Shown: positions 1,881 to 20,424 of the stretch, piece by piece
Layout: each line of letters starts with the position of its first letter
Numbering within the stretch: the first letter of the stretch is position 1
From: Thermoplasmataceae archaeon
Lineage (GTDB): Archaea; Thermoplasmatota; Thermoplasmata; Thermoplasmatales; Thermoplasmataceae
DNA length: 64,000 nt
NCBI GenBank assembly: GCA_046703545.1
Contig: JBJKSX010000053.1
Span: 25,761 to 89,760 of the forward strand
Direction of reading: 5' to 3'
The notes under the pieces: model-generated
Told to the model about the DNA's origin: nothing
The model's input: only the letters and a program-made list of their open reading frames with translations
The model's database searches: none
Made by a program: the position numbers and the translations under genes

Positions 1881-2678
1881 TTACTTGTTCTTTCTCCACT
1901 TTGGCGGCCTCATTCCACTGGCTGGCCTCTTCCCTGCCGAGAATGCGAAGAACACCATGAATATGACCACAATTGCCGCAACATAATAGATCCAGTTGTA
2001 ATTGGGCGGTGTTCCGAAATAGAAATGGGAAGTTGCCTGGCCGCTGTTGCCGTTCACCTGAATTGCAGACGACGATGCTGTGACCTTTATTGAGTGCTCT
2101 CCGTTTGTCAGGGACTCGAATGGGTAGGTGTAGTTCACTTCAAGCACCTGGTTGGGCAGAATGGATGCGACTGTAACCTGCCCGGTGGGGAATTGTGAAT
2201 TATCCAGGTAGAAATCAATGGTGAGGTTGTGAACCGTGGAAATTCCTTTGTTCGCTATCTGTGCATGGAAGACAATGGGCTCCGATACGGAAACTGAGTA
2301 TGTCTGGCTGTTGCTGACATTCGCCCCATTGTAATCGGCTGCAGCAATGACCTTGACATATATTGTCTGAGCAATTGCTGGAGAGGTTATGTTGAACTGG
2401 AAATCAGGATCAGTCGCACTGAACTTGTGAATTGAAGACTGCAGCGATGAAGAGCCTGAGAAGTTCTCTCCCCCTATGTATGCGGTGACTGTGTAATTGC
2501 TGAAGCCATATGTTTCGTTGACATACATTGTGAAGTTCTGGTTCACGAATGAGTATGACGGGAGTGAAGCTGTCTGCGAGAACGGAGGCACGTATGTGTA
2601 ACCGCTTGAGACACCTATGGCTGCGAACGATGAAAGGAATAGTAGTGAAACAATCGTAATCAGTGCTGTCTTCTTCAT
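1881..2678 (-). CDS. Small membrane-anchored surface glycoprotein candidate (signal peptide, CARDB-like beta-sandwich, C-terminal TM and basic tail)
   Basis: N-terminal 'MKKTALITIVSLLFLSSFAAIG' looks like a signal sequence. There are many N-x-S/T sequons. 'NLTIDFYLDNSQFPTGQVTVASILPNQVLEVNYTY...GEHSIKVTA' is CARDB-like. The C-terminus is 'IYYVAAIVVIFMVFFAFSAGKRP...KWRKNK'. The start ATG overlaps the aglB stop (ATGA at 2675-2678). Confidence 0.65.
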   Translation of the reverse strand: MKKTALITIVSLLFLSSFAAIGVSSGYTYVPPFSQTASLPSYSFVNQNFTMYVNETYGFSNYTVTAYIGGENFSGSSSLQSSIHKFSATDPDFQFNITSPAIAQTIYVKVIAAADYNGANVSNSQTYSVSVSEPIVFHAQIANKGISTVHNLTIDFYLDNSQFPTGQVTVASILPNQVLEVNYTYPFESLTNGEHSIKVTASSSAIQVNGNSGQATSHFYFGTPPNYNWIYYVAAIVVIFMVFFAFSAGKRPASGMRPPKWRKNK

Positions 2679-5600
2679 TTCTTCCTGCTCCTGTAAGCTG
2701 TTGCGATGAGCCCACCGACAACCGCCACCGCAATTATGAGTATGCCATATAGCAGTGTGCCAAGTGGGGAACCTGTGTAATTGGCGATAATGTTTGCTCC
2801 CGAAGGATACGGGACAACACTTGCCGACTGCGGCGAGCTGAATGAGAGTTGCTGTGAAATGCTGAGTGTGCCATTCTGTGCTGTGGTGCTGTTTGTATTC
2901 AGAGTGAATGAGAACGGATAGACCGGCTGGGACACTGTTGCATTGAGTGAAACATATACCACCTTGCTTGTTCCGAATGGGAGGTACACAGAGTTGTTGG
3001 TCCCACTGTTCAGGATAAATGAGCCATGCCAGCCATTCAGCTGGAGCATTGTCTGGTTAAGGGACAGATAAACTGTCAGGGGTGCATTGCCCGTATTGTT
3101 CAGCAGAACTGGTATCAGAGTCATGTTGCCATTGTAGACAGGGAACCCATTCTCACTCACGGAATAATTGTAGTCTGCCTTGACGTTCACTGGAAGATTG
3201 AGCGTTGTTGAGCCACCGATGTACCCCAGCGAAACTGGAAGGTTCTCAGATCCGTATGCAAGATTTCCGTTGAGAGTGGCATTCACCGTTATGTTCGCAC
3301 TCTGGCCCGGCATGAGTGTCAGCGTGCTTGGATTGAAAGATTCAGTCCAGGTTCCTGCTGTGGAAGCCAGGAATATTGACTCATTGCTGTTTCCGGTGTT
3401 TGTGAGGTTGAAGGTGTATGTCAGGTTTCCGCCCATTCCAATTGTGGCGACTCCGGATATGAGGTTTGCCTGGAATGAATGCACCACATTCTTGCTGAGT
3501 GTAAGGGGTATGGTCATGTCGGAGTTGACCTGCACAACAGTTCCAGTGGAATATGTCACTGTCAGTATGCTGCCATCCATTGTTGTTTCAGTGGTTGATG
3601 TTGAAGACTGGAAGCCGTAGCTTCCAACTGGAAGGAATATGCTTCCTGACATTGGATCAAATGCAAACCTTGCATTTCCAGATGTTATGTTGACCGGGTT
3701 GTTGACTATCTTGCTTCCCATGTTCACGCTGGCGGTTACGTAATAGCCATTGGACATTGTAAGGTTCTTGGATATGCCTGATGAGAAAGCCGGAACGTCA
3801 ATTGCACCGAAGTAAGCAGTATTGCTCATTGTGTTCTTTGCGTATATGGTATTCTCTCCTGTGGGCACATTCATGGAATAGTATCCTGCACTGTTTGTTG
3901 TGGTCGTGTTCAGAATATCCCCTGCAGCATTGACTAGCATGACTGTTGTGTACATCGATGCGCCTCCGCCAAACGTGGCGTAGCCGGAAAGCGGAGAGAA
4001 GTACTGCTGCCCTGCAATGGACAGGTTAAGCATGGTGTTTGAGTTAAGATCAACTGCCTTTGAGCCCGTGTATGTGTAGGAGCCAGTTGCATTGGAGAAG
4101 GAATAGCGGTAAGTCACCGTGTAGGCCCCCGACGGGAGTGCGATTGAACCGCCGCTCACATTAAGAATCGATGAGCCCTTTGTAATGGTGTAAACACCAG
4201 CAGAATATGCCTGGCTGTTGGACAGGCCAAGGCTGTACGCATTGCTGTAAGTTGGGTTGATCACTGTGTTCCCCTGTATGAACTGTGTGCTCAGGCTCGC
4301 GCCTCTTGAGGAGTTGTATGAATAAACCTGGTAAGTTCCTGTTGGCAGCATTGTTTTGTCGCTGACTTCAGTCCCGTTCAGGTAGAAAACCCTGGTAACC
4401 TGGGCTGTGGAGGATGTGACATTTGAATACTCTGTCACTCCAAGGTGATACGTGCCCATGTGCGGGCTGTTCACTGCCAGGTAAGCCGGATTTGCCACTA
4501 TTAGTGAATTTGCAGAGGAGAGTGTGGCCAGGTAGAAGCCAAGTGGCACATCAACAGTCCCTGTCCCTGATGTGAGGGTAATGTTGTAGCTGCCGCTATC
4601 TGAAGTGAGGTGAAGATACTGCGTGGTAGATGCAAGTGAGGTCTGGCTCAACTCCAGAGTGAACTGCGATGTGATCTGTGTGACCGGAATGGAAGCCTGT
4701 GATCCACTGGCCGTTATTGATGGGGCAGCGCTGTAAAATGCATTTTCATATGAAAGTGACATGCTTCCGGCTGCATAGCTCGGGTAATACAACTGTGCTA
4801 TGCCCTGCGAATTGACGATTGTGAAGTAGAGCGGTGTGTTTCCAAGCTTCATGATCACGATTCCACTGTTCACTGCAGACTTTGCATTATAAGTTGAGCC
4901 GGCACCACTGTTGAAAACCAATGCCGTGTATGTGTTGTTCTGTGTCAGCGAGAGATTGAAATTGGAGTTGCCGTACACATTTATGGTCTGGAATCCCGAA
5001 TGGCTGCCGCCCGTGTATACACCTATGCCGGAGACCTCATAGGATCCCTCTGGAAGCTGTATCTGCAGATTTTTGTTGCTGTTGAATGAGTACTGGAGGT
5101 AGGTGTGTCCAGTGAGCAGTTCATACTGGCCGGAATACGTTGTGGAGCCCTTCATGTTTGATGCCAGTGTGAGATTCGCCAGGGGCGATAGTGTCACGTT
5201 GGCGTAATACGTGCTGTTGATGGTTACCGTGTTGAGGTAGCTTCCCTGAGGTGAAAGAACATATTCAGTGTATACGCCGTATGGGATGCTGCCCGAGTAT
5301 CTCCCATTGCTGTACGCAAGTGAAATTCCTGCACTCATCAGTCCATTCTTGTAAAGTGTCACATTGGCCGGGCCGCTGTAACCGTTTATTCCTATTGATA
5401 CAGTGGAGGAAAGCAACGGGGTGAGATTGCCTGTAACGTTCTGGCCCCAGGTGCTGAATCCAGCACTGGCTGGATTGGATGATAAATTGTTCCCGGACAG
5501 TGAAATGGTATAGTTTCCGGGTGTCACCCATATCTTGGCTGTGCCGGTTGAGTTGGAAAGTGTGCTTCCCGCAACATACCCTGTGCCTGTGGTTGCAACT

Positions 5601-8600
5601 GATAGCCCCTGAAGCCTGCTTCCCGAAAGGGAAACATTTGCGAAAATTGTGTCAAAGGCCACTATCATGTTGTATATCAGGTTTCCACCGTTGGAAACAT
5701 TTGCAAGCAGAAGGTTGGAATACGTGTGGCCGCCTGTTGTTATAGCCACTTCGTATGATATGGGAGGTAGGTTTGTGAATGAATAATTGCCGTTGATTAT
5801 GGGGGCTGTGTATGAAAGGTTGTAAGTGCTGTTGCTGTATGTGATGGAGCCGTCATTGATCTGAGTCTGAGTCATCTGTGTCGAAGCTGGACCCTGCCCT
5901 GGCAAATACTGCTGATACTGGAATTTGGCTGAACCAGAAATGTTTGTGTAGCCCATTCTGTAATTCTCAGTCAGGTAATAATCTGGAAGGCCGGTGGTCT
6001 TGTTGTATGAGGTTGCGATCCTGTTTCCCTGATTCTGAGATATTGTGATCTGCTTTGTCCCTATGGAGTTTGAACCTATCAGGTAGTGCTGTGCGATGGG
6101 CCCTGTGCTGTAGAACAGGCTGTCGTTTCCTGGCAGTGCAGTTATATTGTAATACCCCTGGCTGTTGGTGGTAACCACTTCATGAGGTATCCCATACTGG
6201 TCGAAAACAGTGACATGGACTCCCGGCACCGGGTCTCCGTTTGGCATGGTAATCTGTCCGTGCACAATTGCCCCGGGATAATATGCAACAATTGGGTCAG
6301 ATATGGCAACAAGGGTTGATACCGGCGGCATGAGCTCCACTGTGCCAACGCCCTGTGTCTTCAGTGTGTAAGCTTCCTGGAGAGGAACTGTTGTCCAGGC
6401 TGTGGGATGTGCCTGATAGTCCTTGTAGGGGTTGAATGGTATGTTCTCATACACGAGGAGGAAGTTGCTCATGTTCCAGGCTGGCATTGCAGTGTACTGG
6501 GTAGCACCGTAGTCAATCCCAGGAATTCCGTAAGTCTGGCCCACAGCTGAAGGCGGTATGCCAATGGTGAACCTGTAAATTGAAGTGTTGTAAAACTGTG
6601 GGGTGTACTGTATGTTGTAAGATGTTGGTATAAGCCCCGAAGGGAGGTTCTGCAGTGAAAAGGTCCCGTTTGCCGTGTTGGCGAATATGTTGTAGAATCC
6701 TGTAGGTATGACACCGCCAGCAGCGGTTGCGTAAGACGGTGTGTATGTCAGATATGCGGGTGCATAAAAGATGCCTGTGTCCGTGGCGGATATTGGCAGA
6801 AGGGGCGGAATGCTGTTGTCAGTAGGTATCTGGATATATTTTATTGAGTTTCCAGTTGCGGATATCAGGTCCTGATATGTGTTGATTATTGCTGATGTGG
6901 AGTAGGTGCTGGCAAGGTATCCTTTGATATAGGCGAAATAGACGTTCTGGGAATCTATCCCAGAAATATACTGCCCATAGACGGTTGGATTGGCCAGAAC
7001 TGCATTCTTGTACTGGTCTGGATTCTTGGAAACATTGATCAGGTTTGAATACCCTGAGGCCCCAAGATCCTGAATAAGAATCAGCGTAACGTTTGAAGAG
7101 AAATTGCCATTATTGTAATTCGCCTGTAACAGACGCCCAATGAACAGGGATATGATCTGGGAATTATTCTGCGCCAGCAGCGTCTGCCCGGCTATTGGGA
7201 TTCCCTGCTGGAAGTCGTCCGCGACAGATGGGTGCTTGCCCTGGTACAGCTGCTGGAAACCATAATCCCACCACGATACGTAGGCCGGCTTGTCCAGAAC
7301 AGGAACATTTGCGTCCTGGGTGGATAGCCAGGCTAGAGACTTGCTCAGTGGCGTTGATCCATTTGTGACTCCTCCGCTCAATCCCCCAACAAAATTGGTT
7401 GTGTTGTTTGTCTGGAGGAAAGATGGTATTGAACTTCCGATCTGTGATTCGATCTGTCCCTGCGCTGTGCTTCCATATGGAACCGCAGCAGAAACCATGA
7501 ACGTCGCGGAGGGAATGATAAGAAGCGCGGTTATGAGAACCACAAACACTGTCTGAAGTCCCTTTATGTTGCCTCTTATTGCTTTCAGCGGTGATGCAGA
7601 AGTTGAGGGCTTCTTCTTCTTTATCTCATCAAGCCTGCTGACCTTTGCAAAGAACATAAGCATTGCCGCACCCAGAATTGCGTATGCGGGGGCAGCAGTG
7701 ATGTTGAACCTTGCAGCAGCAAAGCTCATGTATATGGATACAAGTGAGAACACCAGTATATACAGAAGATGTTCTGACTTATCCTTGAAATACAAGTACA
7801 CTGTGTAGGCGAGACCAGTCAGGCCAAGCATGAACTGGGCAACACCAAAGCCTCCGATGTATGATCCAAGTTGTGGAGCGGCGGCTTCGGCAATTGTGGC
7901 ATAAACACGTGTCTTGATGAAGTATCCCTCACCACTGAGGAGCCTGTCCAGAAGTGCAGGGCTGAAAATAGCCATGCCTTCAAACGCTGCTATGACAACA
8001 ACCGCGAGAATTGGAATGATGAGAATCCAGGGCCTTCTTCCAACTATGCCGATTACGATGCCGACGAATATCATCACTATTCCTATCAGAATCTCAGCAT
8101 TGTACCAGCCGCTGGCTTCACCAAGGGCGATATAGTAGTAAGCACCCATGGCAAATCCAAGAATTACGAACAGAGCGGTGTAGAATGTAACATAACCCGT
8201 TGGCCTTTTCAGGAAGAGGTTCACAAGAAGCTGAACTGCCACGTACATGAGCAGGATGGCCTCGATGTAGGCATATCCCTGCCAGGAAAGCATCAGTCCC
8301 CCCAAGGAAGCTCCTGCAAGGAGGGCATAGATTGTCGGAATCCTGTTGGCGTTGAAGAATTCAATGATCCTGGTGTGGTAATGCCTGAAATCCCTGAGGT
8401 CCTCGATGATCCTCCCTTTCTGGCTCATCTTTATGGCCTTTACAAAGAAATATATCGCAAAGAATGCAAATATAAGCTCTGGAGTGTGCATCCTGCCGCC
8501 TGAGAGTATTCCTGCCGAAAGGTTGCTGGGCATCAATGCATAAAGCATTGCAGCAACCGCAGCTGTATTCTTGCCGAATATCTCCTTGGCTATGAGGTAT

Positions 8601-9013
8601 ACTGGTATGATTAAGAGCGCCCCGAAGACTGCGTTGAACTCTTCAAACGCATAGAAGGCGGCCTGATCCACATTCATGAATGGAGACAGGATCTCAGCTA
8701 CAAGCACGATAAACCAGTGGAAGAACGGATTCCTCGGGTTTGTCGTTCCTAGCGGATAATTGAGACTAGGATCGAAAATTAGCTGAGAGTGGTAAGTTAG
8801 TATGTGCAGAATTATCTGAAAATTGTAGTATGGATCACTTCCCCCTGAGGTAGGAAGTGCAGCCAAGCCACCGCCGAGAACCATGGTCGCTGACCAGTAG
8901 TAGTAATTGGAAATGAAAAGGTAGAAAGCGACCAGTATGCCGACGATGATAACCTCTGAATGCCTGTATATCCTAGATAACACGTTGTATCGTGGTTCGA
9001 ACTGTAATTCCAT
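2675..9013 (-). CDS. aglB: Dolichyl-(mono/di)phosphooligosaccharide-protein glycosyltransferase AglB (STT3 family) with a very long C-terminal surface-protein-like extension
   Basis: Uninterrupted 2,112-codon ORF. The N-terminal ~510 aa form a polytopic membrane domain with the first-loop motif 'GGSDPYYNF'. The catalytic 'WWDYG' is encoded at 7259-7273. The remainder is S/T/N/Y/G-rich beta-type sequence ending in the TM helix 'LLYGILIIAVAVVGGLIATAYRSRKK'. Confidence 0.85.
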   Translation of the reverse strand: MELQFEPRYNVLSRIYRHSEVIIVGILVAFYLFISNYYYWSATMVLGGGLAALPTSGGSDPYYNFQIILHILTYHSQLIFDPSLNYPLGTTNPRNPFFHWFIVLVAEILSPFMNVDQAAFYAFEEFNAVFGALLIIPVYLIAKEIFGKNTAAVAAMLYALMPSNLSAGILSGGRMHTPELIFAFFAIYFFVKAIKMSQKGRIIEDLRDFRHYHTRIIEFFNANRIPTIYALLAGASLGGLMLSWQGYAYIEAILLMYVAVQLLVNLFLKRPTGYVTFYTALFVILGFAMGAYYYIALGEASGWYNAEILIGIVMIFVGIVIGIVGRRPWILIIPILAVVVIAAFEGMAIFSPALLDRLLSGEGYFIKTRVYATIAEAAAPQLGSYIGGFGVAQFMLGLTGLAYTVYLYFKDKSEHLLYILVFSLVSIYMSFAAARFNITAAPAYAILGAAMLMFFAKVSRLDEIKKKKPSTSASPLKAIRGNIKGLQTVFVVLITALLIIPSATFMVSAAVPYGSTAQGQIESQIGSSIPSFLQTNNTTNFVGGLSGGVTNGSTPLSKSLAWLSTQDANVPVLDKPAYVSWWDYGFQQLYQGKHPSVADDFQQGIPIAGQTLLAQNNSQIISLFIGRLLQANYNNGNFSSNVTLILIQDLGASGYSNLINVSKNPDQYKNAVLANPTVYGQYISGIDSQNVYFAYIKGYLASTYSTSAIINTYQDLISATGNSIKYIQIPTDNSIPPLLPISATDTGIFYAPAYLTYTPSYATAAGGVIPTGFYNIFANTANGTFSLQNLPSGLIPTSYNIQYTPQFYNTSIYRFTIGIPPSAVGQTYGIPGIDYGATQYTAMPAWNMSNFLLVYENIPFNPYKDYQAHPTAWTTVPLQEAYTLKTQGVGTVELMPPVSTLVAISDPIVAYYPGAIVHGQITMPNGDPVPGVHVTVFDQYGIPHEVVTTNSQGYYNITALPGNDSLFYSTGPIAQHYLIGSNSIGTKQITISQNQGNRIATSYNKTTGLPDYYLTENYRMGYTNISGSAKFQYQQYLPGQGPASTQMTQTQINDGSITYSNSTYNLSYTAPIINGNYSFTNLPPISYEVAITTGGHTYSNLLLANVSNGGNLIYNMIVAFDTIFANVSLSGSRLQGLSVATTGTGYVAGSTLSNSTGTAKIWVTPGNYTISLSGNNLSSNPASAGFSTWGQNVTGNLTPLLSSTVSIGINGYSGPANVTLYKNGLMSAGISLAYSNGRYSGSIPYGVYTEYVLSPQGSYLNTVTINSTYYANVTLSPLANLTLASNMKGSTTYSGQYELLTGHTYLQYSFNSNKNLQIQLPEGSYEVSGIGVYTGGSHSGFQTINVYGNSNFNLSLTQNNTYTALVFNSGAGSTYNAKSAVNSGIVIMKLGNTPLYFTIVNSQGIAQLYYPSYAAGSMSLSYENAFYSAAPSITASGSQASIPVTQITSQFTLELSQTSLASTTQYLHLTSDSGSYNITLTSGTGTVDVPLGFYLATLSSANSLIVANPAYLAVNSPHMGTYHLGVTEYSNVTSSTAQVTRVFYLNGTEVSDKTMLPTGTYQVYSYNSSRGASLSTQFIQGNTVINPTYSNAYSLGLSNSQAYSAGVYTITKGSSILNVSGGSIALPSGAYTVTYRYSFSNATGSYTYTGSKAVDLNSNTMLNLSIAGQQYFSPLSGYATFGGGASMYTTVMLVNAAGDILNTTTTNSAGYYSMNVPTGENTIYAKNTMSNTAYFGAIDVPAFSSGISKNLTMSNGYYVTASVNMGSKIVNNPVNITSGNARFAFDPMSGSIFLPVGSYGFQSSTSTTETTMDGSILTVTYSTGTVVQVNSDMTIPLTLSKNVVHSFQANLISGVATIGMGGNLTYTFNLTNTGNSNESIFLASTAGTWTESFNPSTLTLMPGQSANITVNATLNGNLAYGSENLPVSLGYIGGSTTLNLPVNVKADYNYSVSENGFPVYNGNMTLIPVLLNNTGNAPLTVYLSLNQTMLQLNGWHGSFILNSGTNNSVYLPFGTSKVVYVSLNATVSQPVYPFSFTLNTNSTTAQNGTLSISQQLSFSSPQSASVVPYPSGANIIANYTGSPLGTLLYGILIIAVAVVGGLIATAYRSRKK

Positions 9014-9104
9014 TGTCGTCGTACCTGAGTAACTGCAATATAATCTGAATATAAAAAACTAGGCTGAATGAGCTAAAATACAATAAATAATGAATAAGTA
9101 GGTG

Positions 9105-9593
9105 TTATGGAATAAACGTCAAAATTTCTTCATCAGCGTCATAATCGATCAGCTTAGAATAACGCCCCCATGTCAGGATCAGCCTGAAAGTGGCCTCATG
9201 ATCCTCAGATGGGAAGTTGTCTGCGATGAAATCGTCAAGGTCATCCCGCTCCATCTCATTTGAGCCGGAGTTTTTGAAGCTTCTGATGAGGGACGCAAAT
9301 GGTTCCACTTTGCCAAGCAATTCCCTGAGTTTAAGCTTCCTGTCGGTCAGGTCCGCTTTGAGGAAATCTGTACCAAACGGGGTAACAGAGGCGTCGCCTT
9401 CCTCTACGTTTACCAAACCTAATGCCTCTGCATCATTGAGAAGATTGAGGAGAGTTGTTCTTTCTTCATCTAGCGAATCATCCAGAGTTGCAATGTCTAC
9501 TGGATTTCCCATATCTTCCAGTATTTCCAGCAGACCAAAAACATCTCCAATATTTTCTGTTTCCAAAAGGTGCATTTCTGATTTGTTCTCCAT
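9105..9593 (-). CDS. Stand-alone 'AAA-associated C-terminal domain' protein (the domain normally fused to NitT/TauT-type ABC ATPases)
   Basis: Acidic 162-aa protein. 'VFGLLEILEDMGNPVDIATLDDSL...LLNLLNDAEALGLVNVEEGDASVTPFG' and the terminal 'LILTWGRYSKLIDYDADEEILTF' match my recollection of the conserved '...IDWGRYAELFaYD...' signature of that domain. Confidence 0.55.
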   Translation of the reverse strand: MENKSEMHLLETENIGDVFGLLEILEDMGNPVDIATLDDSLDEERTTLLNLLNDAEALGLVNVEEGDASVTPFGTDFLKADLTDRKLKLRELLGKVEPFASLIRSFKNSGSNEMERDDLDDFIADNFPSEDHEATFRLILTWGRYSKLIDYDADEEILTFIP

Positions 9594-9708
9594 ATTTTTA
9601 TTAGCTTAAAGATTTTATGTTTGAATCGGGTGGTTTCTCGATTTTTCTCTTGAGGTCGGCCTTCATTTCAATCATGTAAAGGTTTTTCACGGTTGTACGG
9701 TTGAATGG

Positions 9709-10755
9709 GTGTTGGCAGGAAAAAAAGGTGGTGCCCGCAAGAGGGCTCTGCAAATTATTCGGGATTCTGGTTCCAGGGGAATTGGACAAAAGGATCTGGA
9801 GAAGGCTCTGGGGATTTCCAAGTCGTACTGTTCCGAAGTGGTTGCGGGGCTGAACAGTGATGGACTCATAGTGAAGGCTGGAAGGAAGGGAATTGGTTCC
9901 ACCATTTACATTCTTGAATTTTACCCGGGAAAATTGGAGGGCATCTTCAGGGCAGGGCTGCTGAAATCTTCCGAATATATTCCTTCCATGGCATTTCTCA
10001 TGGACTCTGCAGCTTCCATTGGGTCAAGGGTGGTCTTCAGGTTCTACGACAGCACAATGGAACTGATAGGGGATTTGAAAGCGGGTTCTCTGGAATTTGC
10101 CCTTGCCCCCACCAATGCTCTTATCCTTTCCGCACTGCTTTCCTCAGACTTGAAAATACATTCAGGCCTTTCCTCGGGAGGTTCAGGAATCATATATTCA
10201 AAGGAATGGCGCAAAGACGCACTCCTGAGCACAGAAGTCTCCACCATGATCTCAATGAGCATACACGCCCCGGACAGTGAAACTCCTGAGGAGATAGAGA
10301 CATTTTCTGACCCGGAGAAGGGCCTGGCAAAATTCGTTGACGAGAAGTACAGGGCCATCGCAATATGGGAACCTTACCTGAGCGCCTTCAGGAAGGATTT
10401 CTCTCCTGAAAAAGTGGTGAAATATGAAAGCATTATGGACCGGTTTCCCTGCTGTTCGCTTGTCACCACAAGGCCATTCTGGTTGCGAAACGGGGAAAGC
10501 TTTGGTCAAAGGATGCAGGATTTCTTGGACGGAACAGTAACAGGGTTTGAAAATGGCGGGTCGATTGATAAAGCTGTGGAGATAGTTTCCGAGGCCCTGA
10601 AAATGAAACCTGAACTCATAAGGGAAAGCATGGGGTCCTATGATTTTTTAAGCCGGAAGATCAGCAGAAAAATGCTGGCTTCCTTGGGAATATCTCTGTC
10701 CATGAGGCAGGAGAAACAGATATTTGCTTCAGGCCTCATCATTTATGATAGATGA
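9709..10755 (+). CDS. Winged-HTH regulator fused to an SsuA/NMT1-like (NitT/TauT-type) substrate-binding domain
   Basis: The N-terminus 'ALQIIRDSGSRGIGQKDLEKALGISKSYCSEVVAGLNSDGLIVKAGRKG' is wHTH-like. The rest resembles periplasmic-binding fold class II ('FRAGLLKSSEYIP', 'LKAGSLEFALAP', 'AIAIWEPYLSAF'). There is no signal peptide or lipobox. The start is GTG 9709 or TTG 9712. Confidence 0.55.
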   Translation: MLAGKKGGARKRALQIIRDSGSRGIGQKDLEKALGISKSYCSEVVAGLNSDGLIVKAGRKGIGSTIYILEFYPGKLEGIFRAGLLKSSEYIPSMAFLMDSAASIGSRVVFRFYDSTMELIGDLKAGSLEFALAPTNALILSALLSSDLKIHSGLSSGGSGIIYSKEWRKDALLSTEVSTMISMSIHAPDSETPEEIETFSDPEKGLAKFVDEKYRAIAIWEPYLSAFRKDFSPEKVVKYESIMDRFPCCSLVTTRPFWLRNGESFGQRMQDFLDGTVTGFENGGSIDKAVEIVSEALKMKPELIRESMGSYDFLSRKISRKMLASLGISLSMRQEKQIFASGLIIYDR

Positions 10756-12351
10756 CAGTTCGGTTATATTTATTTCAAGAAGAGAAACTGGGTTCTTGAG
10801 TTCGAATGCCTCGAGTGCAGTTGGGTGGACTTCCCCTATAATTCCAATGTCCCTTCCATTGACAAGCACATTTCCGCACCTGCCCTCAACCAGCATTTCG
10901 AGCTTTGCAGGCTTTACGTATAGATTCTGGACTCCAAGCCTTACTGTCAAGGCATCCAGGACCTGCTTTATGCCGGAATACCCTGATTTTGAGTCTGCCC
11001 TCACGATACAAAGGCTGGAATGCTGCTCCGCGTCCTTCAGTACCTCCCCTATTTCGAACAGGTTCTGAGGGAGGTTGCGCCTCTTGTTGATGCGAAGGAA
11101 GTCCAGAGCGCCTAAAGAAAGCCTGTCTCTGACCACACTGAAATCAAGGCTCTTGGGGTTCTGCACCTCAAGGCCACCTTTGTACTCAACATTCCCGAAG
11201 AATTTTCTTGATGTGACCACGTAACTCATTATTTCCTGATGCCCGAGCCCAACCATCACTTCCCTCAGCAGGTTCTGGAAAGATTTGTGTTTGACCTCAT
11301 CCCCGATCAGGTTCAATTGTGGGCGGCTTGGAACTATATTGTCATAGCCGAATCCTTTGGCAATATCCTCGATAACATCCGCTGGCCCCATAACGTCTCC
11401 CCTGTTTCCAGGGATCGCAACATTGTATGTGCCCTTTCCAACGCTGCATCCGTATCCCATTCTCTCCAGTATCGCCTTCACTTCCTTGGGAGGGATGTCT
11501 GTGCCGGTGAGTTCTCTGACGTCGTCTGACGAAATGCCCATGATCCTGCCATCGAATTTCATCGACTCTGAAAGGTCGTTGAAATTGGAAAGGGATATTT
11601 TGTAGCCCAGGTCGAAGAAGAAATATGCCAGCTGGTAAAATGAGTCCCTCAGGGCCTTCAGGTCCGTTCCGGTCACATCGATGAAGAATGAGCTGGTTTC
11701 AGGGGATACAGCCGTGGTGTTGCCGTTTATGACGGGGGGCATGGAAAGCACATGGTGCCTGTTGTCCTCAATAATTGGAACTTCATCTTCAGAGGGGATT
11801 AGATGGGCATACTGCCTCCCCTTTGGGTGTTTGGCCAGTATTGACATTGCAGTTCCACTGACTTCCCCGTCGTAGGTTGTAAATGAAACCTTGTCTGAAT
11901 CATATGCCTTATAGTGTATTGGGCCCTGCAGCCCCTTGGTGTCATGAATTCCTATGGAGACTTTCGAACGGTCTTTTCCCGTTGATGCATGAATCCTTTC
12001 CTGGTAATCGATGAGATCCCTGAAATGCTCTCCTATCTGCCTGCCCTGGCAGCAGAAGCCCACAGTGTACGGGCGAAGTTTCCTGACATCTTCATGTATT
12101 ATGAAATCTAGGCTGTTGCTTCCATATGAGAGTGGTTTCCACGAACTCTTGCCGTCATAGACTTCCATGGATTTGTGCAATGATGTGAAAGAAAAAAGAT
12201 CGGGCCTGTCTGGATTGAATTCAACTTTAACTTCCTGGCCCTCTTCTTCAAGGGTGTACCCGATTATTCCGGAATAGCGGTCAAGCCTTGAAACAAAATC
12301 ATTTCCGTAGAGTTTGGATAGCACAGACCGGGATTCCTTGATCACAACCAT
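10729..12351 (-). CDS. pheT: Phenylalanine--tRNA ligase beta subunit (archaeal type)
   Basis: 540 aa, the typical archaeal PheT length. 'EVKVEFNPDRPDLFS' and the B3/4 plus B5 domain layout fit. A TATA-like 'ctttataaaag' lies about 26 nt upstream of the ATG. Confidence 0.85.
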   Translation of the reverse strand: MVVIKESRSVLSKLYGNDFVSRLDRYSGIIGYTLEEEGQEVKVEFNPDRPDLFSFTSLHKSMEVYDGKSSWKPLSYGSNSLDFIIHEDVRKLRPYTVGFCCQGRQIGEHFRDLIDYQERIHASTGKDRSKVSIGIHDTKGLQGPIHYKAYDSDKVSFTTYDGEVSGTAMSILAKHPKGRQYAHLIPSEDEVPIIEDNRHHVLSMPPVINGNTTAVSPETSSFFIDVTGTDLKALRDSFYQLAYFFFDLGYKISLSNFNDLSESMKFDGRIMGISSDDVRELTGTDIPPKEVKAILERMGYGCSVGKGTYNVAIPGNRGDVMGPADVIEDIAKGFGYDNIVPSRPQLNLIGDEVKHKSFQNLLREVMVGLGHQEIMSYVVTSRKFFGNVEYKGGLEVQNPKSLDFSVVRDRLSLGALDFLRINKRRNLPQNLFEIGEVLKDAEQHSSLCIVRADSKSGYSGIKQVLDALTVRLGVQNLYVKPAKLEMLVEGRCGNVLVNGRDIGIIGEVHPTALEAFELKNPVSLLEINITELSSIINDEA

Positions 12352-13588: not shown

Positions 13589-13645
13589 CTTCTATGCAAA
13601 AAAGCGATATTAGTCATTTCAGCCATCGGATGGTTGAGGTGTCTA

Positions 13646-14353
13646 ATGAATAGAACACTATATAGAGGAGTAAAAAAACTCCAGAGAGCATTCAGCCTTA
13701 AGGCCAATAAGGCTGAGACAGGAATCGGTACCCTGATTATATTTATAGCCATGGTACTGGTGGCAGCAGTTGCCGCAACTGTGCTTATACACACAGCTGG
13801 CAATCTGCAGCAGAAAGCGACTAGCACAGGAACACAGACCACACAGCAGGTCTCATCTGGCCTCTCGGTGTCATCCGTTTGGGGACTGGACCAGGCAACA
13901 CCAACAGAATCTGGAAACATAACCTGGCTCGCTATCTACGTTACACCTAACGCAGGCAGCAGCGGAATAAACCTGAACCAGACCACAGTGCAGCTTGTAT
14001 ACAATGGTGTATCTGCATCACTGACATACAACGCAACAGCTAGCGGATTCCACAAGTTGACCTCAGGAACCAGCAACGTGTTTGCTTCAGCAAACCTCGC
14101 AGGAGCTAACTCAACGAAGTTCGCAGTGCTCGACCTTAAGGACCCGTCATCATCAATGACACAGAACTACCCGGTCATAACCAACGGTGGGGAAGCAGTC
14201 ATTCTCGTTAACGTGACAGCAGTCTTTGCAGGATCCGGCATAACGCAGAACTCACAGGTTTCTGGCCAGGTCTCACCACAGGTCGGATCACCAGGAGTAA
14301 TCCAGTTCTACGCACCGTTTGCTTACACGCAGGAAGTAATGCAGCTCCAGTAA
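13646..14353 (+). CDS. flaB: Archaellin (FlaB/ArlB), single copy
   Basis: Class III signal peptide plus the conserved hydrophobic N-terminus '[27 protein letters not shown]'. Five N-x-S/T sequons. ATG 13646 is preferred over the listed TTG 13634 because of the GAGGTG SD. Confidence 0.85.
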
Positions 14354-14388
14354 GCTGCTTACTTTCTCCTATTTGAACAGTGATCACT

Positions 14389-14877
14389 ATGGGTCTCTTA
14401 GATAATATAAAGGGCTTAGGAAAAAAGAAAAAAGAGACCACAGTCAACGTACCCCAACCGAACGCACCAATTGAACCACCAATCAGCAATCAACAGTCAC
14501 AGGGAATGGACAGTAAATTCATAGATGGTGTCAATCAAAGAATCGGCGCGGTTGAAAATGAAATCAGTAAACTGAACGTGTCAATGGAGACCGCAAAGAG
14601 GAACATATCTGAAATAAAGGATGACCTTGAATCACTGAAGGAGAATGTTAAAATGGTAGTATCATTATATGAAATGGTATCGAAGAAATTCAATCCATTT
14701 ATGGACATCACCCCGGAGGAGATCAAGGAAGTCACTGACGAGCTCAGGGAGAACATAAGGAGCCTCGAGCTGCTCGTGCAATATGCAATGGGCGATCTGA
14801 GGGAACTTTATGGGACACCTGACATAGACGATGTGCTTTCAGATTTGGAACACCAGGAGGATGCAAATGATCAATGA
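14389..14877 (+). CDS. flaC: Archaellum accessory protein FlaC-like (coiled coil)
   Basis: Coiled-coil 'VENEISKLNVSMETAKRNISEIKDDLESLKENVKMVVSLYEMVSKKFNPF' is typical of the FlaC family. It is positioned directly after the archaellin gene. Confidence 0.7.
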   Translation: MGLLDNIKGLGKKKKETTVNVPQPNAPIEPPISNQQSQGMDSKFIDGVNQRIGAVENEISKLNVSMETAKRNISEIKDDLESLKENVKMVVSLYEMVSKKFNPFMDITPEEIKEVTDELRENIRSLELLVQYAMGDLRELYGTPDIDDVLSDLEHQEDANDQ

Positions 14878-15565
14878 TGCACTGAAGAGTTTTCTGCAGA
14901 CCAAAATGGACTCTGCAGATAAAACGATCCCAAAGTTTGTACTGGAAGAGCTTCGGCAGAAGATACTGAACTCACCAACGAAATTCTCAAAATCGGACAT
15001 AGAAGCCCTCTTTAACAACCTAGAACAAAGATACAGTGAAAGCAAAGAGAACTCTCTTCTGGGAAAGGTGGACAACCTTTTCAAGGAGATTTCCAACGTA
15101 GAAAAGATGCTATCCGGAGACGGATCGAAGAAGAAGAGTCCCAATGAACCAGAAGCAACGGAAACCCCGCCGGTTCAGGCAAGATACCCCTGGAAGGCCC
15201 ACAGAAAAGCCAAGCTGGAAACGCTTGGTGATGACGTAGTCTCTCTGATGGTGGCCCTGCGCTGGCTGGAATTCCTTCTGGACAACTATGGGCCTGAGAA
15301 CACCATGGATGTACTGGACTACTACGAGAGCATAGGCTGGATATCCCAGTCTGTGAAGGAGCAGATGATCAAGTTCACCAAAATGACGGGCCTGATCAGC
15401 GCAGTCCAGGAGTACAAGGTGAAACCATCTATCCAGGACCACATTGTGACCATGCTCTTCATCGAGAAACTCAACGGTGGCGAGATTACCAGAGATCTGA
15501 TCGAAGCGCTCGAGAGAGACTTCAGAATGTTGAAGAAGGGAGTCGACGAATTATATGGGATTTAG
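14861..15565 (+). CDS. flaD: Archaellum accessory protein FlaD/E-like
   Basis: The C-terminal 'VVSLMVALRWLEFLLDNYGPENTMDVLDYYESIGWISQSVKEQM' matches the FlaD/E domain. ATG 14861 is preceded by 'CAGGAGG' and overlaps the flaC stop. Confidence 0.75.
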   Translation: MQMINDALKSFLQTKMDSADKTIPKFVLEELRQKILNSPTKFSKSDIEALFNNLEQRYSESKENSLLGKVDNLFKEISNVEKMLSGDGSKKKSPNEPEATETPPVQARYPWKAHRKAKLETLGDDVVSLMVALRWLEFLLDNYGPENTMDVLDYYESIGWISQSVKEQMIKFTKMTGLISAVQEYKVKPSIQDHIVTMLFIEKLNGGEITRDLIEALERDFRMLKKGVDELYGI

Positions 15566-15977
15566 TTACGTTATAGCTGTGGCAGTATTGCTAAGCTCTT
15601 CCCTTATTTTTTTCGGAATGGTATACTCCGACTTCGTGCACGCGGATGCTCAGCTGAAAGGAGCACAGGACCAATTCAACCAGAACAATTACGATTACTT
15701 GAATTCACAGGTATCCCTTGATGGGTACAACTACACCCAGACGGGGTCCAACTTCACAGTAACGATGAACGTTACAAACACAGGGAGTGTCACCCTGGAC
15801 ATGAATGGCACAAACGTGTTGCTTAACGGTACGCTGGTTAACTTCACGTATTCCACCCAATATCTGTTCCCGCTTGGGAATGACAGCCTGACATTCAATG
15901 TCAGCGGGGCTGGAAACTACAGTGTAAACATGGTATTCGACACAGGATACCAGAAATATGCAAAGGTGACAGTATAA
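15555..15977 (+). CDS. flaF: Archaellum protein FlaF-like
   Basis: Archaellin-like hydrophobic N-terminus 'FSYVIAVAVLLSSSLIFFG' followed by a beta-rich domain. Operon position is after flaD/E, with an 11-nt overlap. Confidence 0.65.
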   Translation: MGFSYVIAVAVLLSSSLIFFGMVYSDFVHADAQLKGAQDQFNQNNYDYLNSQVSLDGYNYTQTGSNFTVTMNVTNTGSVTLDMNGTNVLLNGTLVNFTYSTQYLFPLGNDSLTFNVSGAGNYSVNMVFDTGYQKYAKVTV

Positions 15978-16424
15978 ATGGGATCATTGGCAACATCTGA
16001 AATGATATTCTTCATAGCCACACTGGTGCTCAGTGTGTCAGTAGTGGGAGTGCTGGGAGGCCAGACCGCCCACCTGACCATGGGCATGGAGAATTCCGCT
16101 AAAGGGACATCCAGCCTGATACAGACTGATTTCCAGATCATAAACGATCCGAGCCATGTCCCGTACAACAATGGATACGTGTTCTACATAAAAAACACAG
16201 GCGAGAACAGCATAGTGTTCACCAACAGTTCGGTCAGCGTCCTGATAAACGGGACTCTGATGACAGGCAGCCTGCTCAACGTCATATCTCCCGGCAATTC
16301 GGGGCAGATATTGCCAAGCCAGGTTGGTGAACTGGTTGTGAACACCACCATAGGGTCAGGCTACAACCAGATAACGGTTACCCTGTCAAATGGCCTGAGC
16401 AAGAACATGGAGTTCCAGGTTTAA
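15978..16424 (+). CDS. flaG: Archaellum protein FlaG-like
   Basis: N-terminal hydrophobic helix 'MIFFIATLVLSVSVVGVLGG'. The ATG immediately follows the flaF TAA. The order flaF-flaG is canonical. Confidence 0.65.
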   Translation: MGSLATSEMIFFIATLVLSVSVVGVLGGQTAHLTMGMENSAKGTSSLIQTDFQIINDPSHVPYNNGYVFYIKNTGENSIVFTNSSVSVLINGTLMTGSLLNVISPGNSGQILPSQVGELVVNTTIGSGYNQITVTLSNGLSKNMEFQV

Positions 16425-16434
16425 GGGAGAGAAT

Positions 16435-17106
16435 ATGTATCTGAACTTTTCCCTCGAGGGGGACGAACTGGACAGGAGAATGGGCGGCGGTCTGTACGTC
16501 GGCCAGGTGATTACCATAGAAGGAGGCAGCGGGGCAGGAAAAACACTCCTGTGTTTGAGATTAGCCTATGGTATGATAAAACATGGTACAACCATCGCCT
16601 ATGTCTCCTCCCAGTTTCCCGTTAGGGAATTCATGAATGAGGCGGAATCGCTTGGTTACCCGATGATGAACGAGATCCTCTCGGACCAGATCTCATTCAT
16701 CACTTCCGTCTTCCTGATGAGGAAAACCAAGAAGGCTAGGCTTGATGATCTGCTCAATCTGGAACAGATCAAGGAAAAGCAGGTCCTCATAATCGACTCC
16801 CTGAATCCGGAAATGTTCTCAGACTACGAGATTGGACAGTATTTCAGCAGGCTCAGGAAATTCTCTGAAAACAGGATTGTAATAGTCACTGTCAATCCTG
16901 CAGATGTCAGCAAGACAGGTCTATCCACAATCCATGAGCTCTCCACAACAATAATCGGCCTCAACACCAAGGAAGTTGCAGGCGAGAGGAAGCACATGGT
17001 TGACCTGATGAAATTCCCGATGGCACACCAGAGCTTCCAGCAGGCCATTCCTTTCAGGATAGAGCCCGGAAGGGGACTCATAGTGGAAATATCAAGCGTA
17101 TCATGA
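16435..17106 (+). CDS. flaH: Archaellum ATP-binding protein FlaH (RecA/KaiC-like)
   Basis: Walker A 'IEGGSGAGKTLLC', RecA-like layout, 223 aa, located between flaG and flaI. Confidence 0.8.
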   Translation: MYLNFSLEGDELDRRMGGGLYVGQVITIEGGSGAGKTLLCLRLAYGMIKHGTTIAYVSSQFPVREFMNEAESLGYPMMNEILSDQISFITSVFLMRKTKKARLDDLLNLEQIKEKQVLIIDSLNPEMFSDYEIGQYFSRLRKFSENRIVIVTVNPADVSKTGLSTIHELSTTIIGLNTKEVAGERKHMVDLMKFPMAHQSFQQAIPFRIEPGRGLIVEISSVS

Positions 17107-17115
17107 GGTAAAAGA

Positions 17116-18735
17116 ATGCCAGACTACATAGTATCAGACAGTCTGGAGGTAGCACTCCAGAGGAATCCGCATCTCGGAACATACCTGAGTGAATACAGGA
17201 TGCAGACCCAGAGGACGCCACAGTTCGTCCCGGTCCCTGACAACTCCCTCAGGGATATGGCATCACTAGACGTCATATACCCAGTGGGTGACCCAATCTT
17301 CATCCACATTTACAGTGACAATGGAAACCTGATCTACAAGCCAATAGAGCCTGACCTCACTCCCGAAGAGATAGGATTCATGGAGCAGATACTGACCGTG
17401 ATCCTGGGCTATGCAGCAGATTACCCTCCTCCGGAATCGGAAGAGGTGCTCGACCAGAATCTGGAAGAGATCTACAACAAGGCTGTCATACCGGGCTCCA
17501 CAAACAAGGTAAAGACGGCATCGGTGACCATTCTGCCAGACCTAAGGGACAAGATGCTCTACAACATCAAGAAGGATGTCATAGGGCTTGGACCCATAGA
17601 GCCGCTCATCAGGGATTCACACATTGAGGATATCAGCGGAATTGGGGCTACGGACATATTCATAGTTCACAAGATATTCGGCACTTTGAAGACCAGAATA
17701 AGCTTTGGGGACAACGACAGGCTTTCCATTTACAGCAAGAGGCTGAGCGAGAGAGTGGGAAGGCCGGTTTCGGACAAAACCCCAATCGTTGACGCAACCC
17801 TTCCTGATGGCTCCAGGCTTTCGATCGTGTACAGCAGTGATGTGTCCACAAGAGGGCCTAGCTTCACAATCAGGAAGTTTGCTGACATTCCCATCAGCAT
17901 TGTCCAGCTTGTAAGGTTCAACACCCTCTCCGCCGAGGAGGCCGCATACCTGTGGCTGGCTCTGGAATATGGGCAGAGCGTGTTCGTCTGCGGTGAAACT
18001 GCCAGTGGAAAGACAACTGTGGTCAATGCCATGATACCGTTCATCAGGCCGGAGTCAAAGATATTCAGTGCAGAGGATACCCCGGAAGTCAGGGCACCGC
18101 AGGATGCCTGGCAGCAGCTTGTGACAAGGGAAAGGGGTGCAGAGGACAGCCGTGTAACCCTGTTCGACCTGCTTAAGACTGCCCTGAGATCAAGGCCCAA
18201 CTACATCATTGTGGGAGAAATCAGGGGAGCTGAGGGATCGATGGCATTCCAGGCAATGCAGACGGGACATCCTGTCATTTCGACGTTTCACGCTGCCTCA
18301 GTCAAGAAGATGATACAGAGGTTCACGGGAACGCCAATCAATATACCTGTGACTTTCATGGATAACCTGAACATCGCCCTCATCCAGCAGGCAGTTTATG
18401 TCAATGGAAAATTCCTGAGGCGGACCACCAGCATCAATGAGATCGAGGGTTACTTTGAGGAACTTGGAGGAGTCTCAACAAAACAGGTCTTCCAGTGGGA
18501 TGCCACCAATGACAAGCACGTATTCAGGGGACTCAACAACAGCTACATCCTGGAGAAGAGGATTGCCCAGACAGCGGGCATGGCTGATCCAAAATCCATA
18601 TACGATGAGCTGTTCAAGCGTGCCAGAATAATTGAGTGGATGCTCCAGAACAACATAACTTCATATTACAAGGTTTTCGAACTCATAAAAACGTTCTACA
18701 TCAAGGGAGAAGCAGCAATTCCAGTATTCGGGTGA
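17116..18735 (+). CDS. flaI: Archaellum motor ATPase FlaI (type II/IV secretion ATPase superfamily)
   Basis: Walker A 'VCGETASGKTT', Walker B / Asp box 'YIIVGEIRGAEG', His box 'GHPVISTFHA'. Confidence 0.9.
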   Translation: MPDYIVSDSLEVALQRNPHLGTYLSEYRMQTQRTPQFVPVPDNSLRDMASLDVIYPVGDPIFIHIYSDNGNLIYKPIEPDLTPEEIGFMEQILTVILGYAADYPPPESEEVLDQNLEEIYNKAVIPGSTNKVKTASVTILPDLRDKMLYNIKKDVIGLGPIEPLIRDSHIEDISGIGATDIFIVHKIFGTLKTRISFGDNDRLSIYSKRLSERVGRPVSDKTPIVDATLPDGSRLSIVYSSDVSTRGPSFTIRKFADIPISIVQLVRFNTLSAEEAAYLWLALEYGQSVFVCGETASGKTTVVNAMIPFIRPESKIFSAEDTPEVRAPQDAWQQLVTRERGAEDSRVTLFDLLKTALRSRPNYIIVGEIRGAEGSMAFQAMQTGHPVISTFHAASVKKMIQRFTGTPINIPVTFMDNLNIALIQQAVYVNGKFLRRTTSINEIEGYFEELGGVSTKQVFQWDATNDKHVFRGLNNSYILEKRIAQTAGMADPKSIYDELFKRARIIEWMLQNNITSYYKVFELIKTFYIKGEAAIPVFG

Positions 18736-20396: not shown

Positions 20397-20424
20397 AATC
20401 CAGCCTCCTTTCTATTGGATAAGC

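Follow-up and report, generated by a model that had tools for sequence, protein, structure and literature searches.

Oligosaccharyltransferases (OSTs) of archaea and bacteria are treated as single-subunit enzymes of ~600–1,000 residues, with accessory subunits counted as an invention of eukaryotes. The accessory subunits of the eukaryotic OST (ribophorin I/II, OST48/Wbp1, Swp1) are single-pass proteins with lumenal β-sandwich domains. NOMO, a member of the BOS complex in the multipass translocon of the endoplasmic reticulum (ER), forms an exoplasmic rod of ~12 transthyretin-like/CarboxypepD_reg domains and has one C-terminal transmembrane (TM) helix with a short cytosolic tail. The present study concerns the aglB gene at 2675..9013 (minus strand) of a 64,000-nucleotide stretch (the window) from a Thermoplasmataceae archaeon (assembly GCA_046703545.1, contig JBJKSX010000053.1, positions 25,761 to 89,760). 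An original prediction, made from the letters and open reading frames (ORFs) alone, had described its product as an AglB OST fused to a surface-protein-like tail. The locus is interpreted here, with moderate confidence, as encoding the Thermoplasmatota form of the AglB OST, which is doubly anchored, carries a giant tail and is accompanied by a coupled partner protein.

Gene layout and catalytic part of AglB

ORF list and translation agree on a single reading frame of 2,112 codons with the stop codon at 2675–2677, as predicted, and public databases contain an identical protein (100 %), encoded on an NCBI contig of 154.7 kb. The GC content is even across the ORF (0.48–0.50). Read from the translation, SDPYYNF starts at residue 59, WWDYG occupies residues 581–585 (nt 7259–7273) and NGDPVPGVHV starts at residue 925, while two Ig-like strings begin at residues 1863 (NLTYTFNLTNTG) and 1975 (GNAPLTVYLSLNQT) and the terminal helix at residue 2087 (LLYGILIIAVAVVGG, then RSRKK). 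The STT3-type membrane domain and every string quoted in the original prediction lie where they had been placed. The following features are distinguished at the locus:

7469..9013 (-): polytopic GT-C/STT3 membrane domain, residues 1–515, ~13 TM helices (Pfam, profile, Foldseek, hydropathy, helices of AlphaFold2 (AF2) model)
8831..8848 (-): SGGSDP, residues 56–61, acidic motif of external loop 1 with catalytic Asp60 (invariant in 40 sequences)
7886..7897 (-): TIAE, residues 373–376, TIXE motif of external loop 5 (T373, I374 and E376 invariant)
7259..7273 (-): WWDYG catalytic motif, residues 581–585 (alignment to AfAglB-S domains)
6299..7468 (-): conserved extracellular core domain with WWDYG, residues 516–905, counterpart of the AglB C-terminal globular domain (entropy, weak AglB_core match, PDB profiles)
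6014..6298 (-): first CarboxypepD_reg (transthyretin-like) domain, residues 906–1000 (Pfam PF13620)
3479..6013 (-): variable array of ~10 β-sandwich domains (duplicated CarboxypepD_reg-like repeats), residues 1001–1845 (AF2, Foldseek, hhalign)
2834..3478 (-): two related CARDB/Ig-like domains, residues 1846–2060 (hhalign, weak Pfam matches)
2678..2833 (-): low-confidence linker, conserved juxtamembrane motif NYTGSP (2078–2083), TM helix 14 (~2087–2107) and basic cytoplasmic stub RSRKK, residues 2061–2112 (hydropathy, AF2)
1881..2678 (-): partner gene, 265 aa, its ATG overlapping the aglB stop codon (ATGA) (Pfam CARDB, translation)
9037..9058 (-): AT-rich TATA-like elements TTTTTTATAT and TTATATT, 24–45 nt upstream of the aglB ATG, possibly an archaeal promoter (read by eye)

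The N-terminal part resembles characterised AglB proteins in sequence and predicted fold. Pfam STT3 matches residues 59–457 (E 1.2e-10, 42.0 bits vs a cut-off of 24.5), and PMT_2 also scores above its threshold. The NCBIfam model TIGR04154 (archaeo_STT3, the archaeosortase A-associated AglB subfamily) matches residues 49–619 (E 9e-51) with 173.1 bits vs a curated cut-off of 450, indicating a protein related to this subfamily but outside it. A profile of residues 1–1000 matches AglB-L of Archaeoglobus fulgidus (AfAglB-L; 3waj, E 7.6e-16) over residues 9–527, placing GGSDPYY opposite GGNDPWY, which contains the catalytic Asp of external loop 1. Foldseek with an AF2 model of the same 1,000 residues (built from a 20-sequence alignment and used for fold-level matching only) ranked four AfAglB-L entries on top, i.e., 7e9s, 3wak, 3waj and 5gmy (E 2e-14 to 2e-11; 2e-14 for 7e9s and 5e-13 for 3wak), followed by human/yeast STT3, PglB and ArnT. 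The ~13 TM helices of residues 1–515 were obtained from hydropathy in agreement with the helices of this model.

SGGSDP, T373/I374/E376 of TIAE and WWDYG are invariant among the 40 aligned sequences. Asp60 corresponds to D47 in the first DXD-type motif of AfAglB-L. The TIAE tetrapeptide also recurs in the matching loop of AfAglB-L, set 8 residues out of register by the HMMER alignment. WWDYG was found in 119 of 120 listed homologues, and 3vgp and 3vu0, both C-terminal domains of AfAglB-S, have their own WWDYG at the aligned position. The surrounding core (residues 516–905) displays a column entropy of 0.8–1.7 bits, a weak AglB_core-like match at residues 577–608 and PDB profile matches at residues 555–641; beyond ~residue 640 it probably continues the fold of the AglB C-terminal domain. 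Since residues 516–905 are conserved like the membrane domain and have the size of an AglB C-terminal domain, they are counted as part of the enzyme. Therefore, the true extension comprises ~1,200 residues (906–2112), so that the predicted extra tail exists but is shorter than the >1,400 residues assigned to it. Judged by its motifs (loop-1 Asp, TIAE, WWDYG), the part from residue 1 to ~905 is a predicted catalytically intact AglB, which, by analogy to other AglB proteins, should transfer dolichol-linked glycans to Asn-x-Ser/Thr of exported proteins.

Tail domains, second anchor and partner gene

Residues 900–2080 contain 35 % Ser/Thr/Asn, 5 % Asp/Glu/Lys/Arg and no Cys. An AF2 model of residues 913–2112, likewise built from a 20-sequence alignment, reached a mean predicted local distance difference test (pLDDT) score of 83 and consists entirely of β-strands except for one C-terminal helix (2083–2111); its strand pattern yields ~13 β-sandwich domains between residues 906 and 2082. 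Compared with the PDB by Foldseek, the tail matched Ig-like/macroglobulin strings only (hydin, alpha-2-macroglobulin, integrins, contactins, pilins), with neither an enzyme fold nor an S-layer protein among these matches.

The carboxypeptidase-regulatory-like signature of the original prediction corresponds to a Pfam CarboxypepD_reg domain (PF13620) at residues 917–962 (E 1.7e-12, 47.9 bits vs gathering score 32.3). The same family was matched in 20 of 20 family tails scanned with Pfam, and two distant relatives of less extreme composition contain 5–7 copies (E 1e-45 to 1e-60). Weak matches to NOMO_5th, NOMO1-like_9th and EMC7 in distant homologues remain at or below the gathering score. According to hhalign, residues 915–988, 1127–1180, 1206–1290, 1555–1617 and 1676–1768 match each other with 95–98 % probability, and residues 1848–1945 pair with 1951–2059 as CARDB-like domains (96 %). 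The array therefore arose by internal duplication.

Signatures of CARDB and S-layer type had also been predicted for the tail. They persist as weak Ig-like matches (HYDIN_VesB Ig, E 4e-4, below threshold; DUF1573; fn3_5), and no CARDB (PF07705) match was obtained in the tail at E<=1, while the CARDB domain of the partner protein matches residues 1853–1930 (hhalign 72 %, E 3.5e-5). The S-layer part did not stand: no S-layer family was matched in Pfam and NCBIfam scans of the protein at E<=1 or in Pfam scans of 20 family tails, and AF2, Foldseek, hhalign and Pfam instead describe an array of transthyretin-like/Ig-like domains.

As predicted, the Ser/Thr/Asn- and sequon-rich, charge-poor tail ends with its own TM helix and a basic stub. 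Every full-length homologue has retained NYTGSP, the terminal helix and the R/K tail. The layout of NYTGxP, TM helix and basic tail resembles tripartite sorting signals, the motif being confined to Thermoplasmatales; no PGF-CTERM/archaeosortase-type CTERM model of NCBIfam matches the aglB product.

The partner gene at 1881–2678 had been overlooked in the original prediction. Its 265-aa product is laid out as a type-I membrane protein and comprises a signal peptide, a CARDB domain (PF07705, E 4.4e-7, 30.5 bits vs gathering score 22.7), the motif FYFGTPPNYNWIYY (family consensus FY.G.PPNY.WIYY), a TM helix and the basic tail PKWRK. It has no NCBIfam match, and the homologue search yielded only unnamed relatives of ~260 aa. 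Where the aglB 3' end is complete, including in Sysuiplasma and Methanomassiliicoccales, almost every locus has an ORF of 253–293 aa that starts <=5 nt from the aglB stop codon, mostly with a 4-nt overlap; the sole exception among these loci is a frameshifted one from E-plasma. These downstream ORFs are homologous to the partner gene of the window (E 1e-139 to 1e-12), and that of Methanomassiliicoccales (locus L078) falls below the phmmer threshold while sharing the same layout. In a more distant group with AglB proteins of ~1,890 aa, a partner-like 242-aa gene with a hydrophobic N-terminus, a C-terminal TM helix and a basic tail is located 12 nt downstream. The start–stop overlap marks the partner gene as translationally coupled to aglB by sequence, and its conservation suggests a two-subunit OST; AglB and the partner protein probably act as a hetero-oligomer.

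Distribution, selection and sequons across Thermoplasmatota

A search of 5.8 billion protein clusters retrieved >115 full-length relatives of 2,045–2,161 aa with 35–87 % identity at ~100 % coverage. Among them are proteins of Thermoplasma acidophilum (CAC12262/Q9HJ37, 2,081 aa), T. volcanium (BAB60377/Q979C6, 2,076 aa), Oxyplasma meridianum, Cuniculiplasma, Caldiplasma and Ferroplasma. In UniRef several members are named dolichyl-phosphooligosaccharide-protein glycotransferase, other labels on the family being "glycosyltransferase family 39", "carboxypeptidase regulatory-like domain-containing" and "hypothetical". When one genome of each GTDB species was scanned with patterns specific to the giant-AglB family, 78 loci emerged, including Acidiplasma, E-plasma, Candidatus Sysuiplasma (27 % identity, full length) and a metagenome-assembled genome (MAG) of Methanomassiliicoccales (28 %). 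Searches starting from the latter protein reach "marine group II/III" proteins (3,122–3,173 aa) and the group of ~1,890 aa. In an exhaustive HMMER search with the tail alone (residues 913–2112) as query, long tail stretches were recovered almost only from proteins of the same architecture or apparent fragments thereof, and the few non-AglB proteins with a match align only at the CARDB-like repeat region. Purpose-built profile hidden Markov models (HMMs) for TM domain, core and tail confirmed the order STT3 domain, WWDYG core, tail and C-terminal TM helix with basic end in the relatives checked, which are 2,040–2,600 aa long with 22–30 % identity in the tail.

Total length varies from ~1,430 to ~3,170 aa across the phylum. 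Short forms of 1,433–1,454 aa (L055, L057, L059 (Acidiplasma aeolicum) and P0166) lack most of tail-profile positions ~295–1036. They still have the first CarboxypepD_reg region, the final CARDB-like domain and the anchor, and their partner gene overlaps as well. At the other end, the 3,173-aa protein of a marine group II MAG (L079, gene 1889–11410) has an N-terminal extension of ~340 aa with extra hydrophobic helices, WWDYG being located at residue 941. The architecture had been considered unusual. On the sequences recovered, the giant form is instead the standard AglB of Thermoplasmatales, and a doubly anchored giant AglB occurs in every more distant Thermoplasmatota lineage reached by the searches; it is ordinary within the phylum, and databases already contain it under a variety of names. 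Acid-mine-drainage plasma genomes have no other AglB according to one published annotation (Yelton et al. 2013, PMC3750248, Additional file 12), which lists a single AglB for each genome and calls that of E-plasma and that of Ferroplasma type II "split".

These split genes bear on whether the ORF of the window could be an assembly or frameshift chimera of aglB and a separate surface-protein gene. A two-gene state is observable in both published MAGs: the E-plasma scaffold (L049) has two adjacent ORFs of 1,233 aa and at least 499 aa, and EQB73347 of Ferroplasma type II is a 1,395-aa fragment of a split gene. Frameshifts or misassembly, and not a naturally divided gene, probably account for both splits. 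A chimeric origin of the window's ORF has a practically negligible probability and was rejected in view of at least 115 full-length single-ORF homologues from independent assemblies, single ORFs in the finished genomes of T. acidophilum, T. volcanium and Oxyplasma and in the complete genome CP009479, colinearity of homologues from 87 % down to 27 % identity, the even GC content, and purifying selection along the whole ORF.

Conservation differs between the regions of the protein. Column entropy amounts to 0.8–1.8 bits up to ~residue 1000, 2.0–2.6 bits at residues 1001–2080 and ~1.56 bits over the anchor, with the first CarboxypepD_reg domain (1.2–1.7 bits) conserved like the enzyme; the variable stretch is nearly gap-free (gap fraction <=0.09). 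The ratio of nonsynonymous to synonymous substitution rates (dN/dS) was determined by region between this ORF and its 87 %-identical homologue and is 0.036 for the membrane domain, 0.036 for the extracellular core, 0.022 for the first CarboxypepD_reg domain, 0.053–0.067 for the variable tail, 0.034 for the C-terminal anchor and 0.034 for the partner gene, all values being approximate because dS is ~1–2. The tail is clearly under purifying selection, only ~1.5–2x more relaxed than the enzyme. Its ends look essential and its middle looks like an adjustable spacer, the ends weighing more since Acidiplasma-type proteins without the middle still keep both of them.

The same data speak to possible cleavage of a precursor after the enzyme domain, which would release a membrane-anchored glycoprotein of ~130–150 kDa, conceivably the 152-kDa membrane glycoprotein of T. 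acidophilum. The latter protein reportedly has a mass of 152 kDa and contains <10 % carbohydrate, which fits ~70 sequons poorly. Having its own C-terminal anchor, the tail could persist as an independent type-I protein, which is suggestive only; the junction (residues 880–1000), however, belongs to the best-conserved and best-structured parts and shows no recognisable protease site or linker, rendering cleavage highly improbable. The major membrane glycoprotein was described by Yang & Haug 1979, as cited in PMC2952790.

The aglB product contains 56 N-x-S/T sequons (x not P), 5 before and 51 after WWDYG, the latter number agreeing with the ~50 originally estimated. Across 115 full-length homologues, 48–94 sequons follow WWDYG, i.e., 1.5–3.1x the shuffled expectation (z ~4–8 in the 44 homologues computed). 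Their density per 100 aa increases from 0.66 in the membrane domain to 2.8 in the core and 5.1 in residues 1001–2080 (mean of 55 per protein). A sequon is kept in >=90 % of the sequences at only 7 alignment columns, and 147 of 521 sequon-bearing columns are singletons. Therefore, selection acts on sequon density rather than on positions. Other exported proteins of the window reach similar densities per 100 aa (partner protein 3.0, archaellin 2.5, product of ORF 47039–47674 6.6), while cytoplasmic ones have 0–1. ORF 47039–47674 (minus strand, 211 aa), with the densest sequons in the window, a hydrophobic N-terminus, 6 % charged residues and 34 % Ser/Thr/Asn, probably encodes another small surface glycoprotein. 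Distant relatives differ in this respect: over its 3,173 aa, the protein of marine group II carries just 41 sequons, its tail being rich in Asp/Glu; in the 1,890-aa protein there are 18, and Lys accompanies Asp/Glu in the tail. Since relatives with acidic or mixed-charge tails have few sequons, the architecture is older than sequon richness. Equally dense exported proteins in the window and these sequon-poor relatives rule out sequon richness as the defining feature; it would be a trait of the habitat and not of the architecture.

A function of the tail mainly as envelope building block, close to the view of the original prediction, appears rather unlikely; the tail would then be a major glycocalyx or pseudo-S-layer glycoprotein that is anchored by the AglB membrane domain and coats and protects the wall-less cell. 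Such a role would agree with the acidophile-exoprotein composition (5 % charged, 35 % Ser/Thr/Asn), with the ~55 sequons per protein turning over in position as in glycan shields, with rapid sequence evolution at fixed length, and with the absence of S-layers from most Thermoplasmatales (PMC5155288). In addition, "Oligosaccharyl transferase STT3 subunit PTO0786" of Picrophilus torridus was among 30 proteins present in 3/3 secretome replicates and has, like the aglB product, 3VGP_A as best PDB match (PMC8345856); it is the presumed orthologue. Conversely, no S-layer or lattice-forming family was matched, the architecture persists in marine group II and the 1,890-aa group despite few sequons and tails that are not depleted in charge, Acidiplasma-type proteins are ~650 residues shorter, sequon density is no greater than among the window's remaining exported proteins, and enzymes usually have low copy numbers.

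Alternatively, tail and partner protein could serve as accessory modules of the OST, comparable to the eukaryotic lumenal β-sandwich subunits (ribophorins, OST48/Wbp1, Swp1) or the NOMO rod, possibly by holding nascent chains, setting the position of the enzyme with respect to the Sec translocon or dealing with the lipid-linked glycan. Such modules would agree with the conservation and translational coupling of the partner gene, with the conservation maxima beside enzyme and membrane (first CarboxypepD_reg domain; CARDB pair plus anchor), with the persistence of the architecture in lineages without a sequon-rich tail, and with the weak NOMO_5th, NOMO1-like and EMC7 matches of distant homologues. 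These matches, however, reflect the shared transthyretin-like fold rather than specific homology, and the fast-evolving middle with its two-fold length variation across the phylum is unlike a precise catalytic accessory. A primarily accessory role is possible, if doubtful.

In the neighbourhood of aglB, a gene for a 162-aa AAA_assoc_C-domain protein is located directly upstream (9105–9593, minus strand). It occupies the same position in the 87 %-identical relative (L081, 1250–1738) and has no evident link to glycosylation. An archaellum operon (13634–20400, plus strand) begins 4.6 kb from the aglB start and includes genes for archaellin (PF01917, 13634–14353) and Arch_fla_DE (14831–15565); archaellins are classical AglB substrates in other archaea. 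A tRNA scan of the first 20 kb of the window (1–20 kb) found none.

Proposed function and comparison with described systems

Since AglB, PglB and STT3 share an N-in/C-out topology, and in accordance with the positive-inside rule, the ectodomain of ~1,570 residues (516–2086) would be located wholly outside the cell and held at both ends. Anchoring at both ends would therefore bend it into an arch or loop, in contrast to a stalk with one free end; 13 domains of ~3.5–4 nm each would have a contour length of ~45–50 nm. The predicted building of the enzyme into a surface glycoprotein is borne out as far as the fusion is concerned, while "tethered under" it does not describe a protein anchored at both ends. 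The first CarboxypepD_reg domain on one side and the CARDB pair with the anchor on the other may dock on enzyme core, membrane and partner subunit, leaving the middle of the tail as an exposed, glycan-shielded, acid-stable spacer of constrained length. In acidophilic Thermoplasmatales the tail would be heavily N-glycosylated, probably by the same enzyme in cis or trans, and would contribute to the glycocalyx; the idea that the protein is its own substrate accordingly remains plausible.

Several observations weigh against this interpretation. (i) The AF2 model of residues 1–1000 is poor (mean pLDDT 61; <50 for residues 461–615 and 722–848), too poor for delimiting the core domains or describing the Ser/Thr pocket. 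(ii) The DK/MI motif of this pocket appears to be non-canonical, with IAGQ (I607...Q610) placed opposite DAAK of AfAglB-S1 in a weak 18-bit alignment. Residues 607–614 (7172–7195, minus strand) read IAGQTLLA, with G609 invariant and Q610 in >=90 % of the sequences, and are followed two residues further on by the invariant sequon N616. The family consensus AGQxLLAQNQS contains neither D..K nor M..I; the motif is degenerate across OSTs, and this position may represent a fourth variant of it. (iii) In the region of the second metal-binding motif, this protein has Gly172 vs Asp in ~90 % of its relatives, i.e., SGGRMHTPE (residues 172–178 at 8480–8500, minus strand; shared with its closest relatives) vs SDGRMHTPE. 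The segment aligns with D161-x-H163 of AfAglB-L in an uncertain register; R174, H176, T177 and P178 are invariant in the family and E179 nearly so. (iv) In the marine group II locus examined (L079), a Peptidase_S8 (subtilase) gene takes the place of the partner gene, so that an AglB–partner complex, if any, is not universal. (v) Detection of PTO0786 is weak evidence, since the P. torridus secretome also holds cytoplasmic proteins. (vi) Arch geometry, self-glycosylation and heteromer formation are steps that we infer.

A more far-reaching hypothesis may be advanced tentatively. Unlike other archaea studied, Thermoplasmatota might perform N-glycosylation with a multi-component, doubly anchored OST composed of AglB fused to a NOMO-like transthyretin-like rod or arch plus a single-pass CARDB subunit. 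Such an "accessorised" OST would have originated independently of the eukaryotic one, and in wall-less acidophiles its arch might also act as a self-glycosylated glycocalyx scaffold.

A literature search found length, tail and partner of the Thermoplasmatota AglB undescribed, prior mention in subscription papers being possible. As far as can be told, the double anchor, the duplicated array of ~13 β-sandwich domains of constrained length and the coupled CARDB partner are uncharacterised so far. Across a whole archaeal phylum, AglB appears to be 2–3x the usual size and to have a second anchor, joined in most of the examined lineages by a co-translated partner; Thermoplasma and Picrophilus, which belong to this phylum, can be cultivated and are open to genetic and biochemical work. 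If tail and partner handle substrate or build the envelope, models of archaeal N-glycosylation would change. The phylum would then offer a natural system for asking about the role of non-catalytic OST modules, and the glycocalyx with which wall-less cells survive at pH 0–2 might be explained in part. Even a tail that merely forms a decorated spacer would allow a useful correction of annotation.

Three described systems share single aspects with the doubly anchored AglB. Among eukaryotic OSTs, STT3A, STT3B and yeast Stt3 follow AfAglB-L in structural similarity to the enzyme part; the extra domains are, however, fused in cis in the present protein, and since no sequence homology was detected between tail or partner and any OST accessory subunit, the resemblance is a functional analogy only. 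NOMO differs in not being fused to an enzyme, and the weak matches to it are explained by the shared fold clan, no evidence of orthology having been found. The haloarchaeal S-layer glycoprotein and SlaB of Sulfolobus are likewise extracellular and sequon-rich, with β-sandwich domains and a C-terminal anchor followed by basic residues, whereas the aglB product is anchored at both ends and has no S-layer homology or evident lattice-forming domain.

The closest counterparts are AfAglB-L (3WAJ, 3WAK, 5GMY, 7E9S) and other characterised AglB proteins, which share the 13-TM GT-C domain followed by the extracellular WWDYG domain. AfAglB-L, also providing the best profile and structural matches, agrees in the Asp of external loop 1 and in TIAE (TIXE). 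Its deposited chains comprise 875 aa, and the enzyme is described as a single subunit. In contrast, the aglB product of the window has ~1,200 extra residues (~13 β-sandwich domains), a second anchor, a coupled partner and an apparently non-canonical DK motif.

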